The notes beneath the pieces are model-generated. The model saw only the letters and a list, made by a program, of their open reading frames with translations. It was not told the origin of the DNA and did no database searches. Positions 30,512-56,676 of a stretch of DNA of 64,000 nucleotides are shown one piece after another; positions within the stretch are counted from its first letter, which is position 1; the number at the start of each line of letters is the position of its first letter. The position numbers were made by a program, and so were the translations under genes. The stretch lies in assembly GCF_030384885.1 (NCBI RefSeq), contig NZ_CP128613.1, one strand, 5' to 3'. This stretch comes from Escherichia coli. GTDB lineage: Bacteria > Pseudomonadota > Gammaproteobacteria > Enterobacterales > Enterobacteriaceae.

Positions 30512-30757
30512 ATGCGAATTGAAGTCACCATAGCGAAAACTTCTCCATTGCCAGCTGGGGCTATTGACGCCCTGGCTGGCGAACTTTCCCGCCGTATTCA
30601 GTATGCGTTTCCTGATAATGAAGGCCACGTATCGGTACGTTATGCCGCAGCGAATAATTTATCGGTTATTGGCGCGACAAAAGAAGATAAACAGCGCATT
30701 AGCGAAATTCTCCAGGAAACGTGGGAAAGCGCCGATGACTGGTTTGTCAGCGAATAA
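30512..30757 (+). CDS. dinI: DNA damage-inducible protein I
   Basis: 81-aa reading MRIEVTIAKTSPLPAGAIDALAGELSRRIQYAF... inside track ORF 30380..30757. Confidence 0.95.
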   Translation: MRIEVTIAKTSPLPAGAIDALAGELSRRIQYAFPDNEGHVSVRYAAANNLSVIGATKEDKQRISEILQETWESADDWFVSE

Positions 30758-30778
30758 TATGCAGTGATTTTTGTTTTT

Positions 30779-30804
30779 GCCGGGTCGCCCCGGCTTTTTT
30801 ATTT
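30779..30804 (+). terminator. rho-independent terminator after dinI
   Basis: GCCGGGTCGCCCCGGC hairpin followed by TTTTTTATTTT. Confidence 0.8.
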
Positions 30805-31046
30805 TACTTACGAATTTCGAGTACAAAATTCCTACACTTCCTCAAAATAATTGCACAATATGCTAAAAAAATATGAATGACATGCTGTTTTATTGTTCAT
30901 ATAAATCTTAAAAGCAAAAATTTATCTGTTCCCCCCTTTAAAAATTCGGTGAATACCCTTACTTATTGGTATACTGAAGTTGCTTCAGATAAAAACGCAT
31001 TGAACCTCGAATAACGTTGTCTAGTAACACGAATTAGGGGGCCATG

Positions 31047-31301
31047 ATGGAAAAAAATAATGAAGTCATTCAGACTCATCCGCTCGTAGGGTGGGACATC
31101 AGCACCGTTGATAGCTATGATGCGCTGATGTTGCGTTTGCATTACCAGACCCCAAATAAGTCCGAGCAGGAAGGGACTGAAGTTGGTCAGACGCTCTGGT
31201 TAACCACTGATGTTGCCAGACAATTTATTTCGATATTAGAAGCAGGAATCGCCAAAATTGAATCCGGTGATTTCCCGGTAAACGAGTATCGGCGTCATTA
31301 A
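31047..31301 (+). CDS. bssS: biofilm regulator BssS
   Basis: 84-aa reading MEKNNEVIQTHPLVGWDISTVDSYDALMLRLHYQTP... Confidence 0.9.
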   Translation: MEKNNEVIQTHPLVGWDISTVDSYDALMLRLHYQTPNKSEQEGTEVGQTLWLTTDVARQFISILEAGIAKIESGDFPVNEYRRH

Positions 31302-31415: not shown

Positions 31416-32534
31416 ATGAAATACGATCTCATCATTATTGGCAGCGGTTCCGTAGGCGCTGCCGCCGGGTATTATGCAACCCGTGCCGGTTTAAACGTGC
31501 TAATGACCGACGCCCATATGCCACCGCATCAACACGGCAGCCACCACGGCGATACGCGATTAATTCGCCATGCTTATGGTGAAGGCGAAAAGTATGTCCC
31601 GCTGGTCCTCCGCGCGCAAACGCTGTGGGATGAACTCTCCCACCACAACGAAGAAGATCCCATTTTTGTACGCTCTGGCGTCATTAACCTTGGCCCGGCT
31701 GATTCCACATTTCTCGCCAACGTCGCCCACAGCGCCGAACAGTGGCAACTCAACGTTGAAAAGCTCGATGCGCAAGGGATTATGGCACGCTGGCCAGAAA
31801 TACGCGTCCCGGACAACTACATCGGCTTATTTGAGACTGATTCCGGCTTTTTACGCAGCGAACTGGCGATTAAAACCTGGATCCAACTGGCGAAGGAAGC
31901 GGGTTGTGCGCAGTTGTTTAACTGCCCGGTCACCGCAATTCGTCATGACGATGATGGCGTAACTATTGAAACCGCTGACGGTGAGTATCAGGCGAAAAAG
32001 GCGATTGTCTGCGCGGGAACATGGGTAAAAGATCTGCTCCCGGAACTGCCTGTCCAGCCCGTACGCAAAGTATTTGCCTGGTATCAGGCCGATGGTCGCT
32101 ATAGCGTGAAGAATAAATTCCCGGCGTTTACCGGTGAACTGCCCAATGGCGATCAATATTATGGTTTTCCGGCAGAAAACGACGCGTTGAAGATTGGCAA
32201 ACATAACGGAGGCCAGGTTATCCATTCAGCGGATGAACGTGTTCCGTTTGCGGAAGTGGCCAGTGATGGGTCAGAAGCCTTCCCGTTCTTGCGCAATGTA
32301 TTGCCGGGTATCGGTTGCTGCCTGTACGGCGCTGCCTGCACCTATGATAATTCGCCTGACGAAGATTTTATTATCGATACTCTACCCGGCCACGATAATA
32401 CACTGCTCATTACCGGCCTGAGCGGGCACGGTTTTAAATTTGCGTCAGTTTTAGGGGAAATAGCTGCCGATTTTGCGCAAGACAAAAAAAGCGATTTTGA
32501 TTTGACGCCATTCAGGCTTTCCCGCTTCCAATAA
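31416..32534 (+). CDS. solA: N-methyl-L-tryptophan oxidase
   Basis: 372-aa [24 protein letters not shown] with FAD-binding GSGxxG motif. Confidence 0.95.
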
Positions 32535-32581
32535 TCATCATTACGGCCTCCAGAATGAGGCCGTTTTTACAGGAGTATTTA

Positions 32582-32695
32582 ATGCGTCGGCTGTTGCACT
32601 ATCTCATCAATAATATTCGCGAGCATCTGATGCTTTATCTTTTTCTCTGGGGACTGTTGGCAATTATGGACCTGATCTACGTGTTTTATTTTTAG
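32582..32695 (+). CDS. yceO: small hydrophobic protein (37 codons), YceO-like
   Basis: AGGAG RBS 8 nt upstream of the ATG; reads [37 protein letters not shown]; not in the ORF track (short); name from memory of the K-12 locus. Confidence 0.5.
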
Positions 32696-32956
32696 TTTTT
32701 CCGCACTGACATAAACTGACAAATATTTAATCTCCCTTTCATTTAGCGTGAAAAATTGAATGAGATTCTTCCTGCCTCTACAGCACTCACCAGACCTTCC
32801 AGATGCTGAACCCACTAAACTTATGAAGATTCTTTCATTATTAATTCAAAATTATTGAAATAAAAATAAATATCATTCAATTTGTTATTTTTGTGTTGCA
32901 ATTCATTCTCCGACACGCCATTTTCTTTCTCTCGCAAATTCGTTTTGGATGCACTT

Positions 32957-33523
32957 ATGTCATTCACAAATACCCCTGAACGCTATGGTGTTATATCTGC
33001 GGCCTTCCATTGGCTAAGCGCAATTATTGTCTATGGCATGTTTGCTTTAGGTCTGTGGATGGTCACGCTCAGTTATTACGATGGCTGGTATCACCAGGCA
33101 CCGGAACTGCATAAAAGCATCGGCATTTTGTTAATGATGGGGCTGGTTATTCGCGTTCTGTGGCGTGTCATATCTCCACCGCCGGGTCCGCTGCCGAGTT
33201 ATTCGCCCATGACTCGTCTTGCAGCAAAAGCTGGACATCTCGCATTGTACCTATTGCTGTTCACCATCGGCATCAGCGGCTATCTGATCTCAACTGCCGA
33301 TGGTAAACCGATCAGCGTTTTTGGCTGGTTTGACGTCCCCGCGACCCTCGCCGACGCTGGCGCACAGGCTGACTTTGCCGGTGCCGTGCATTTTTGGCTC
33401 GCGTGGAGCGTCGTAGTACTGTCCGTTATGCACGGATTTATGGCCCTGAAGCATCATTTCATCGATAAAGACGACACTCTGAAGCGCATGCTGGGAAAGT
33501 CGTCATCTGACTATGGAGTATAA
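32957..33523 (+). CDS. yceJ: cytochrome b561 family protein YceJ
   Basis: ORF 32882..33523; start placed at MSFTNTPERYGVISAAFHWLSA to give 188 aa; 4-TM haem-binding His pattern. Confidence 0.85.
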   Translation: MSFTNTPERYGVISAAFHWLSAIIVYGMFALGLWMVTLSYYDGWYHQAPELHKSIGILLMMGLVIRVLWRVISPPPGPLPSYSPMTRLAAKAGHLALYLLLFTIGISGYLISTADGKPISVFGWFDVPATLADAGAQADFAGAVHFWLAWSVVVLSVMHGFMALKHHFIDKDDTLKRMLGKSSSDYGV

Positions 33524-47595: not shown

Positions 47596-48051
47596 TTAAC
47601 GTTGTGTCACGCGAATAGCCATTTGCGACTGTCTCTGCACTACAATTGCCGTTTTTTGAGTACCATACTGTGTAATATTTGCTTTATTACCAGAACCTTT
47701 CTGGATAATCATCGCAGTATTACCATAAGCACCTTGCGAAATACTGGCATCGTTGGCATTGCCCGCCTGATCAATATATGCAAGGTTATAATCTCCTGTC
47801 TGGTCAATCTTTGCCCGGTTGCTACTACCTTCTTGCGCAACAACCGCCAAAAGTTTTGAGCCTCCCTGCCGTAACTGAGCACTATTATTAGTCCCAGCTT
47901 GACCAATTATGGCTGCCTGATTAAATGAAGACTTACTCAATTCATTTACCGCGAAGTTATATTCTGAATTAGCTAAATCATAACCTGCTGCGGCTGCAAT
48001 CCCAGGCGCACCCAGTATTGTTAACATCATAAATAACAATTTGTTTTTCAT
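47596..48051 (-). CDS. csgB: curli nucleator CsgB
   Basis: ORF 47596..48078; start placed at MKNKLLFMMLTILGAPGIAAA to give 151 aa. Confidence 0.95.
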   Translation of the reverse strand: MKNKLLFMMLTILGAPGIAAAAGYDLANSEYNFAVNELSKSSFNQAAIIGQAGTNNSAQLRQGGSKLLAVVAQEGSSNRAKIDQTGDYNLAYIDQAGNANDASISQGAYGNTAMIIQKGSGNKANITQYGTQKTAIVVQRQSQMAIRVTQR

Positions 48052-48805
48052 GTTGTCACCCTGGACCTGGTCGTACATTTAAGAAATTAAATCATTTCAA
48101 CTTGGTTGTTAACGCAACCTGTATTTTGTTAACGCTGCGTTACGATGGAAAGTATGTCTGCGGAAATATTTTTAATAACTCACCCGCGCGTTGTATTTTT
48201 CTTTTTTTGTTCATACCAAAGTATTAAAACCCACGTAAATACGCTGTTATCTACGCAAAAAAATATTTTGTTTTCTTTTAAATTTCGGTTTTCCGCAATC
48301 AAAAATCACCAGACAGTCATTCTTCTTGCCCGTCGCTGATTGCTGCGATATGTCTTGCGCACAAGCCGTGACAAACCTCGTCTTTTTGCAGTAAAAAATT
48401 GTCCACGGAGGTGTGGAGAAAAAACAAGAACGTTTTACATGACGAAAGGACTACACCGAAATATTTTTTATATGCATTATTAGCAAGTTAGCACCATTTG
48501 TATGATTTTTTAAAATTGTGCAAGAAAAACCAAATGTACAACTTTTCTATCATTTCTAAACTTAATAAAACCTTAAGATTAACATTTTAATATAACGAGT
48601 TACATTTAGTTACATGTTTAACACTTGATTTAAGATTTGTAATGGCTAGATTGAAATCAGATGTAATCCATTAGTTTTATATTTTACCCATTTAGGGCTG
48701 ATTTATTACTACACACAGCAGTGCAACATCTGTCAGTACTTCTGGTGCTTCTATTTTAGAGGCAGCTGTCAGGTGTGCGATCAATAAAAAAAGCGGGGTT
48801 TCATC
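48052..48805. promoter_or_regulatory. csgBAC / csgDEFG divergent intergenic control region
   Basis: 754-bp AT-rich non-coding gap with no ORF of 60 codons or more; known to carry both curli promoters and the long csgD 5' UTR. Confidence 0.85.
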
Positions 48806-49456
<651 letters not shown>

Positions 49457-54720: not shown

Positions 54721-56088
54721 TCAATCATCATCCTTGCAGTTGATAAGAATTTCTGCCTCTTTTACAACTATCTTATTACGTCCGGTTTCTTTCGCTTCAT
54801 ATAGTGCATTATCAGCCATTCGATAGATTTCATTCGGATTTAACGCACTTCCCTGAGTCACCACAGCGCCAATGCTAATCGTCACTTTTTGCGGTATGGC
54901 GTATTCAGGATTATCGCCTGTCAAACGCTCTACATTTGCCCTTATCCTTTCGGCTAAAACTTTCGCGCTTTCAGTATCGGTCTCCGTCAGCAAGACGCCA
55001 AACTCTTCGCCGCCAACGCGTGCTAAAAGGTCATTTGGTCGTATGCTTTTCCCAATGATGCTCACCACTGTTTTTATCACCTGATCGCCAACCGGATGCC
55101 CCCACGTATCGTTAACTTTTTTAAAGTGATCGATATCCATAATCATGACACAATAAGACGTTTTTTGGGCTGATGCTGATTGAGCCTTCAGTTCATTGAA
55201 AAAATAATTCCTGTTAAATATATTAGTTAATGGATCGCGATGGGCAATGTTCTTTGTTACTCGTAGCGCACTGAAAATATGGCACATAAATATTACCATA
55301 ACGGTTAATTTACTGACTACTTCAATAGTGCGGCTAATATACCAAGTGGACACACTATACCTGCTCATAAATAACAGAGAGATATTATACAGCACGGCAC
55401 AGAAAGCAATCACTGATACTCCATTCCAGATATCACAGCGTAAACCATTAAAGTATAGATTAACCAAAAGCAAGATTAACCACATGAAAATCATTATGGT
55501 AACATATGAGGTTTTCCAGACTACCTGACCATTTTCATTTGTTAACTCGGCAATATGTAAACTGTAGTCATCATAATGACTACTTAGCATGTGAGCAACT
55601 GCCGCCCCCCCAAAAATAAAAAATAGACTTATACACAATGTCATTTTTTTGGAAAAAAAACAGCGTTTCTTATTGTTTTCACTAACTTTATTCACCAGCG
55701 CTAGCAATATTAACATGCACAAACTCATCTGACGAAACAAATAATAAATTGCAATATCATTTTGTACAACGCTGCTTATCAAATGCCCCTCAATAAATTG
55801 CTGAATGATAATGACAGTTTTAACAAAGTAAATCAAACAACTCAGAAACGCTAAACTAAGTATGCAGTTTGAAAATTGGACACGATCATAAATGAAATAC
55901 AATTGCATGAAAATAAATGCAACGGTATCGATAAAAAATAAAGCAATCATAACCATTAGATAGGTTGATCGTGGAACAACCTCCTCAACGGTTGGCTGAT
56001 TAAACCAACTATTTACCAAAACGAATGCAAGCCCAAACAATAAGCTCACCAATACAGTACTACTAATTCCCAAATAGTCTTTTTCCAT
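54721..56088 (-). CDS. dgcT: diguanylate cyclase DgcT (YcdT), membrane MASE-type sensor + GGDEF
   Basis: ORF 54721..56178 (485 aa) with multi-TM N-terminal region and C-terminal GGEEF motif (RVGGEEFGVLL); start placed at internal MEKDYL. Confidence 0.85.
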   Translation of the reverse strand: MEKDYLGISSTVLVSLLFGLAFVLVNSWFNQPTVEEVVPRSTYLMVMIALFFIDTVAFIFMQLYFIYDRVQFSNCILSLAFLSCLIYFVKTVIIIQQFIEGHLISSVVQNDIAIYYLFRQMSLCMLILLALVNKVSENNKKRCFFSKKMTLCISLFFIFGGAAVAHMLSSHYDDYSLHIAELTNENGQVVWKTSYVTIMIFMWLILLLVNLYFNGLRCDIWNGVSVIAFCAVLYNISLLFMSRYSVSTWYISRTIEVVSKLTVMVIFMCHIFSALRVTKNIAHRDPLTNIFNRNYFFNELKAQSASAQKTSYCVMIMDIDHFKKVNDTWGHPVGDQVIKTVVSIIGKSIRPNDLLARVGGEEFGVLLTETDTESAKVLAERIRANVERLTGDNPEYAIPQKVTISIGAVVTQGSALNPNEIYRMADNALYEAKETGRNKIVVKEAEILINCKDDD

Positions 56089-56439
56089 AAAGCTACACCA
56101 ATCTGTAGGTTGTAGATCCCTTTCTGTCACTAATAGATATAAGAACTGTACTGTTGTCAATATAAAAATCCACCACAAACAATACCAATGATGATAGTTG
56201 CAGACCGCAATTATTATTACCTTAGTGCTTTATACATTCTTCGCGACAAGACAGGCTTGCAAATACATATAAATGGTTATAAGGAAATCCTTATAAAACA
56301 TTAATTCATAGATATATTAGGAATAACAATTGAATCCGTGAGTACAGTAACGCTGCATTTCATCAGGACTTTCGAAAAATCCGATATCATGCATCGGAAT
56401 TTACTGATTTAATTATTTTAATCCTAATTTATTTTGAAA

Positions 56440-56676
56440 AAGGCATTGGGATTTATGCCGTATTCCTGAAGTTCCTCATCATTGGAATGGATTTTCGGGC
56501 GAGAAAAGGATTTTATATGGATACTCTACTCATCATTTCTTCTTCTCATCATCAACAATTCACGTCTCTCTTCCGCGTTTAATAACGGATTATGATGTGC
56601 AAAAAAATATCTTTCGTTTCAGTTACCTGTAATTAGATACAGAGAGAGATTTTGGCAATACATGGAGTAATACAGG
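56440..56676 (+). promoter_or_regulatory. pgaA: pgaA long 5' leader (CsrA-regulated in K-12); 5' boundary approximate
   Basis: About 590-bp gap between divergent dgcT and pgaA; several GGA motifs including ACAGGATGT directly over the pgaA start codon. Confidence 0.55.

Follow-up and report, generated by a model that had tools for sequence, protein, structure and literature searches.

Genes and signals at the yceO locus

Along the plus strand of the window, i.e., the whole 64,000-nt stretch of Escherichia coli DNA analyzed here, the end of solA (position 32534) is followed by a hairpin, an AGGAG motif, a small open reading frame (ORF) with its ATG at position 32582, and the start of yceJ at position 32957. 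Reading of the sequence from 32200 to 33400 placed the start codon of the small ORF at 32582-32584 and its TAG stop codon at 32693-32695, which gives a plus strand coding sequence of 37 codons plus stop (32582..32695). The Shine-Dalgarno sequence AGGAG (32571..32575, plus strand) precedes the ATG by 6 nt and is unpaired in the centroid fold. The original prediction had proposed a clean 37-codon ORF with a good AGGAG ribosome-binding site in the position of K-12 yceO; our analyses confirmed the ORF (which contains the peptide quoted at the time), its ribosome-binding site, and its placement between solA and yceJ in both strain 2013C-4282 and strain MG1655.

This small ORF is the known and annotated E. 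coli gene yceO, and thus neither new nor unannotated. Of the complete E. coli genomes compared (5,426), 5,424 matched positions 32400-33100 of the window; identity was 100% to E. coli strain 2013C-4282, in which RefSeq lists a 114-nt coding sequence exactly at 32582-32695, between solA and yceJ ("YceO family protein", WP_001253418.1). The counterpart in K-12 MG1655 is b1058 (yceO, "DUF2770 domain-containing protein"), which occupies the same position between solA and yceJ and shares 37 identical residues with the window protein. The K-12 record, however, is annotated with 141 nt and 46 amino acids (aa), as its start is an ATG located 27 nt (9 codons) further upstream, and many NCBI entries do likewise, whereas the window protein as called by PGAP has 37 aa. 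Our mechanical list of ORFs, which takes the first start after a stop, also gave only the 46-aa version (ATG 32555). Both forms match the Pfam model DUF2770 (PF10968); the 37-aa form does so with an E-value of 1.3e-22 and 79.9 bits (cut-off 25), with residues 1-36 aligned to positions 1-36 of the 36 in the model. The suggestion that this ORF had been missed by annotation was therefore not upheld, as PGAP calls it, RefSeq holds it as WP_001253418.1 and the Pfam model covers 36-37 residues.

The hairpin between solA and yceO (32543..32568, plus strand) resembles an intrinsic terminator, with a stem formed by ACGGCCUC and GAGGCCGU, a CAGAAU loop and a U-run at 32564-32568; the DNA at 32543-32564 reads ACGGCCTC-CAGAAT-GAGGCCGT and is followed by the T-run. 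The RNA fold has a centroid energy of -14.5 kcal/mol. Of 51 solA-yceO spacers, 49 contain a GC-rich stem-loop at the corresponding site, with 41 different 5' arm sequences, and by a strict count a T-rich tail followed the stem-loop in 33 of the 51. The solA hairpin was not among the calls of a simple terminator scan, as its T-run narrowly misses the rule used in that scan.

A scan for sigma-70 consensus sequences found no plus strand promoter. As the yceO start codon lies only 13 nt after the U-run in E. coli (in most genera, its distance from the stem is 15-31 nt), yceO is probably transcribed by read-through, and its mRNA would come mainly from transcripts that pass the solA terminator. Read-through of the terminator is probably the simplest source of yceO mRNA, and the very low abundance of YceO described below fits it.

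Conservation and predicted structure of YceO

An ORF of 37 codons is, on its own, not beyond chance, as 49 ORFs with at least 20 aa overlap the 3 kb around yceO; it is conservation that lifts yceO above the chance level. We used a sample of 80 loci around YceJ homologues (one genome per species) and found a YceO homologue between solA and yceJ, with the frame preserved, in 50 of these loci, representing about 20 enterobacterial genera. These included Escherichia, Citrobacter, Salmonella (S. arizonae), Enterobacter, Kosakonia, Phytobacter, Leclercia and Lelliottia as well as Cedecea, Siccibacter, Franconibacter, Atlantibacter, Buttiauxella, Pseudescherichia and Intestinirhabdus. ORF length ranged from 36 to 38 aa across the 50 loci, except in S. 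arizonae, where a premature stop codon was found. Among 50 distinct yceO nucleotide sequences, the median pairwise dN/dS was 0.135, and column entropies summed to 28.1, 10.0 and 47.9 for codon positions 1, 2 and 3, respectively, with the highest value at the third position. Conservation of the reading frame in other enterobacteria, which the original prediction had named as a check, is thus present.

Four YceO residues are invariant (N11, R13, H15 and D30), and eight more are at least 90% conserved (R3, L8, N10, E14, Y19, L22, W23 and A27). The window protein carries all of the motifs derived from 43 distinct orthologue sequences, i.e., NN[IV]REH, Y19, W23, A27 and D30. The family is narrow, with 62 matches at E ≤ 0.001 in a profile search against 1.84 billion representative proteins. 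The ten matches inspected all keep NN[IV]RE, W23 and the Asp, and two of these ten represent tails of longer, miscalled ORFs.

Production of the protein has been shown by published detection (PMC12529367). Chromosomally SPA-tagged YceO was seen by immunoblot at a very low level by the Storz laboratory, and YceO is listed among the proteins detected by top-down mass spectrometry (MS). An epitope-tagged fusion had been suggested as a further check on the ORF; this experiment had already been published, with a positive outcome for chromosomal YceO-SPA (PMC12529367).

In Salmonella enterica subsp. arizonae CCUG 6322T (L015, 2627-2737), an in-frame stop codon at the position of the conserved Trp23 leaves an ORF of 22 aa, and yceO is probably a pseudogene in that genome. 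In the window, a GTG-initiated ORF of 78 aa on the minus strand (32579-32815) is antisense to the whole of yceO. This antisense ORF is probably spurious, as the distribution of substitutions over codon positions fits the plus strand frame.

The original prediction described YceO as a hydrophobic peptide likely to reside in the membrane, and two lines of analysis agree with this. Residues 16-37 have a mean Kyte-Doolittle hydropathy of 2.05 (2.15 for residues 16-34, the best 19-residue window), and AlphaFold2, supplied with the 43-sequence alignment, predicted one continuous helix over residues 2-36 with a mean pLDDT of 93. YceO thus has, by hydropathy and by predicted structure, a single hydrophobic helix of bilayer-spanning length. 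Residues 1-15 are basic and have a hydrophobic moment of 1.94; this amphipathic segment, which contains the near-invariant NN[IV]REH, would stay in the cytoplasm. Residues 16-37 would form a hydrophobic membrane segment of 22 residues that carries the conserved Y19, W23 and A27 and the invariant Asp30 and reaches the C-terminus. Under the positive-inside rule, R2, R3 and R13 would place the N-terminus in the cytoplasm and the C-terminus in, or just past, the membrane.

The combination of an invariant Asp within the hydrophobic segment and invariant N, R and H residues at the membrane boundary suggests that YceO may have a specific partner. By analogy with other small membrane proteins, YceO would probably act by binding a larger membrane protein. 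CydX, MgtS, AcrZ and MgrB are small inner-membrane proteins that modulate larger membrane proteins, and YceO is like them in size (about 30-50 aa), in having a single hydrophobic helix and in its low abundance. YceO has, on the other hand, no sequence relationship to CydX, MgtS, AcrZ or MgrB (62 profile matches, of which the 10 inspected carry the YceO motifs). CydX, MgtS and MgrB appear in the same small-protein detection table as YceO (PMC12529367). A sequence search of the PDB and a Foldseek search returned no structural relatives, as would be expected for a single helix. A literature search for DUF2770 or b1058 gave only irrelevant matches, and the hints on YceO function in the accessible literature are only indirect, consisting of a table in which it is labelled "acid stress" and of appearances in gene lists.

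As YceO is small and hydrophobic, and present at a very low level (PMC12529367), one could also envision a peptide that resembles a type I toxin and whose synthesis is limited by a small RNA, either antisense or encoded nearby, particularly as the 78-aa antisense ORF and hexamers similar to -35 elements are found close to yceO. We consider this extremely unlikely. Type I toxins typically show a patchy distribution, whereas yceO is a single-copy, strictly syntenic gene under purifying selection across many genera. Moreover, no Rfam match was found on either strand between positions 31000 and 34500, no conserved antisense promoter was identified, and the TTGACA-like repeats near yceO read as plus strand promoter elements, rather than antisense ones, that are part of the region upstream of yceJ. 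The accessible text of PMC12529367 on pBAD-yceO, which was induced there for MS, makes no mention of toxicity.

Positioning of the yceO start codon

Two in-frame ATG codons could serve as the start of yceO, i.e., the ATG at 32582, which yields 37 aa, and the ATG at 32555 (32555..32557, plus strand), which yields the 46 aa annotated in K-12. On the K-12 minus strand, these correspond to coordinates 1119420 and 1119447, respectively. The upstream ATG is part of the solA hairpin, in which its first two bases (A and U) belong to the loop and its G begins the 3' arm, and it has no Shine-Dalgarno sequence, whereas the downstream ATG has AGGAG at a spacing of 6 nt in an unpaired stretch. The AGGAG sequence is invariant within Escherichia, and most other genera have GGAG, GGAA or GGGG at a similar distance.

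The comparison among loci points in the same direction. Of the 50 loci, 47 have ATG at the codon aligned to the ATG at 32582, and the remaining 3 have GTG. By comparison, an in-frame start nine codons further upstream was found in only 2 of these loci, both from Escherichia (ATG in L003 and TTG in L004, a divergent lineage). An in-frame stop codon is located one to four codons upstream of the 37-aa start in 10 loci, and more loci have a stop codon within eight codons. In Escherichia of the E. marmotae type (L089 and L090; alignment A3, columns 31-61), the ATG in the hairpin is kept but is out of frame, due to an insertion of 1 nt between AGGAG and the yceO ATG; these genomes represent a natural test of the 46-aa annotation. 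The 3' arm of the hairpin, together with the U-run, makes up codons 2 to 5 of the 46-aa form (AGG CCG TTT TTA, encoding RPFL). The apparent conservation of RPFL in Citrobacter therefore reflects conservation of the terminator rather than of a peptide.

The alternative that native YceO is the 46-residue K-12 form initiated at ATG 32555, or that both forms are produced in E. coli, has several points in its favor. In E. coli and E. albertii, no stop codon interrupts the frame that leads from ATG 32555 into yceO; the 46-aa start is used by K-12 RefSeq and many NCBI entries; and a peptide specific for the 46-aa form was detected when the ORF was expressed from pBAD24 (PMC12529367). This peptide was, however, reported only from pBAD24 and never from the chromosome (PMC12529367), and we read initiation at the upstream ATG in that construct as driven by the vector. 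The codon in question is also buried, with no Shine-Dalgarno sequence, in a hairpin of -14.5 kcal/mol, the nine added codons show no conservation other than that needed for the terminator, and the upstream ATG has shifted to another frame in E. marmotae and is replaced by TTG in L004, while stop codons close the frame in many genera. Furthermore, the Pfam model begins at the downstream Met. Taken together, we consider a native 46-residue protein, alone or alongside the shorter form, unlikely.

The comparative data thus favor the 37-codon start, as chosen in the original prediction, over the 46-codon annotation of K-12. Comparative and structural arguments indicate that the native protein is very probably the 37-aa form starting at ATG 32582 and that the upstream ATG is probably not the native start. 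The one practical gain is comparative evidence suggesting that the K-12 reference start is nine codons too long.

The yceO-yceJ gap and the relation of yceO to yceJ-yceI

Between yceO and yceJ lies a gap of 261 nt (32696..32956, plus strand) with a GC content of 33%, as compared to 49.7% for the window, consistent with the AT-rich gap of about 260 bp described originally. Only 1.3% of the 261-nt windows in the 64 kb are as AT-rich. Three other regions of the window (30731-31080, 48011-48840 and 55421-56670) are as AT-rich as the gap or more so, with minimum GC fractions of 0.31, 0.25 and 0.30, respectively, in 261-nt windows. Among the 50 loci with yceO, the gap ranged from 207 to 319 nt (mostly about 260 nt) and its GC content from 27 to 41%. 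In an alignment of the gaps from 20 genera, conserved blocks flank a centre, at roughly 32760-32810, that is not conserved.

The first block is a tandem direct repeat, CTGACA-TAAA-CTGACA (32706..32721, plus strand), which resembles the -35 sequence TTGACA and represents a candidate regulator site or a tandem -35 element. Across loci it reads (C/T)TGACA-N4-(C/T)TGACA, with the TGAC bases at least 90% conserved among the 20 genera. It occurs once in the window, with 0.01 occurrences expected by chance, and in 45 of the 50 yceO loci it is located between -197 and -285 relative to the yceJ ATG. As it is kept where yceO has been lost (L046) or displaced (L085, in which it is about 230 nt upstream of yceJ), the tandem repeat belongs to the upstream region of yceJ. 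In comparisons by eye, the consensus sequences of the Pho box, tor boxes, marbox and sigma-54 sites did not fit the TGACA repeat in spacing or sequence.

The second block (C-A-N6-TGA, 32815-32826) and the third block, a palindrome (TTCAA-N5-TTGAA, 32845..32859, plus strand), were also identified in the 20-genus alignment; in the palindrome, C32847 and A32858 are invariant, and conservation reaches at least 90% at T32846, A32848, A32849 and G32857. The fourth block (32896..32924, plus strand) is likely the proximal promoter of yceJ, with a predicted -35 element TTGCAA (32896-32901), a spacer of 17 nt and a predicted -10 element CATTTT (32919-32924). T32896, G32898 and T32924 are invariant among the 20 genera and T32897 as well as C32919-A-T-T32922 are at least 90% conserved; the putative promoter scored below the threshold of the consensus scan.

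Overlapping the predicted -35 element is a direct repeat with an 11-bp period, TGTTA-N6-TGTT (32883..32897, plus strand), which is conserved as ATTGTTATTTTTnAGTTGCA. This is the sole match in the window, yet 0.49 matches would be expected by chance. The repeat resembles an ArcA direct repeat, and ArcA may act at 32883-32897. Expression of yceJ-yceI is repressed 6- to 9-fold under anaerobic conditions in E. coli (PMC3349551), and yceJ-yceI appear in a table of the CpxR regulon (PMC2731931).

A different account would explain the gap as a remnant, either decaying or gained by horizontal transfer, or as the site of a hidden gene or small RNA. Its GC content is within the lowest 1.3% of windows, it contains an ORF of 32 aa (32760-32858), and an IS5 is inserted in it in one strain. 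Gap length and low GC content are, however, alike in about 20 genera, and the middle part that is not conserved covers the start of the 32-aa ORF. Searches of the gap gave neither an Rfam match (nothing credible was found on either strand between 31000 and 34500) nor, in the terminator scan, a terminator-like site. We consider this account very unlikely; the pattern of conserved blocks instead suggests that the gap is a conserved promoter and regulatory region of yceJ-yceI rather than a second coding feature. In the strain concerned, E. coli 23555 (L087, 1874-2854), the IS5 is located just after yceO and before the yceJ regulatory region.

It is tempting to hypothesize that YceO serves YceJ, a cytochrome b561 homologue, or the YceJ-YceI pair as a dedicated subunit with an accessory or regulatory role. 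In all 50 loci, across genera, yceO is directly upstream of yceJ-yceI; in a distant genome (GCA_900635625.1), where the gene for a GerE-family regulator separates solA from yceO, yceO stays on the yceJ side; and the invariant Asp30 in the membrane segment hints at a specific partner. The association is, however, not obligatory in either direction, as yceJ-yceI occur without yceO in loci from Yersinia, Proteus and Pseudomonas, as well as in Enterobacter sp. BIGb0383, from which yceO has been cleanly lost, and as two E. albertii contigs keep yceO without yceJ-yceI. Moreover, yceO and yceJ are set apart by about 260 nt of conserved regulatory sequence. We thus regard a dedicated role of YceO in the YceJ-YceI system as unlikely. 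Similarly, the composite proposal in which YceO serves the YceJ and YceI system as a small subunit or regulator dedicated to it and, separately, the tandem TTGACA-like repeat approx. 250 nt upstream of yceJ is the site of an operon regulator, with yceO expression set by read-through from solA, would in our judgment probably not hold as a whole.

Several loci depart from the common arrangement. The two E. albertii contigs (L088, 1-714, and L091, 1-3114) have the order solA, yceO and trhO (reverse), with yceJ and yceI deleted and the first ~180 nt of the gap remaining, including one TTGACA and a TCAA-N5-TTGA palindrome. Two E. albertii YceO variants carry Y19D or D30V, i.e., changes at invariant or near-invariant positions; both are singleton cluster representatives and may reflect a sampling effect. 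In Enterobacter sp. BIGb0383 (L046, 2678-3001), the spacer between the solA terminator and yceJ has 322 nt and keeps three copies of the TGACA repeat. The two Superficieibacter loci (L033 and L044) have, in the place of yceO, a divergent ORF with no profile match. In L084 and L085 (2260-2889; GCA_031931805.1 and GCA_900635625.1), a gene for a GerE/LuxR-family regulator of 209 aa has been inserted after solA and ahead of a divergent yceO; the distance from this yceO to yceJ is about 590 nt, and TGACA-N4-CTGACA is located about 230 nt upstream of yceJ, away from yceO.

Overall, the explanation that we consider likely for the locus as a whole is that it holds the known gene yceO with its start at ATG 32582, that yceO encodes a membrane protein of 37 residues with a single helix, and that the adjacent gap is the regulatory region of yceJ-yceI. 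For annotation, this would mean that the nine extra codons in K-12 are the solA terminator read as protein, and that the conserved protein has 37 residues. If the 37-aa start is the native one, an MS peptide specific for the 46-aa form would not exist, which affects the design of MS targets; the choice of start also matters for tagged and synthetic constructs and for the intact mass to be looked for in top-down analyses (about 4.72 kDa vs. 5.90 kDa). The calculated masses are 4718.7 Da for the 37-aa form (4746.7 Da if formylated) and 5897.1 Da for the 46-aa form (5925.1 Da if formylated). The conserved motifs in the gap, in turn, represent concrete candidate sites through which yceJ-yceI, an operon that is poorly understood, may be regulated.
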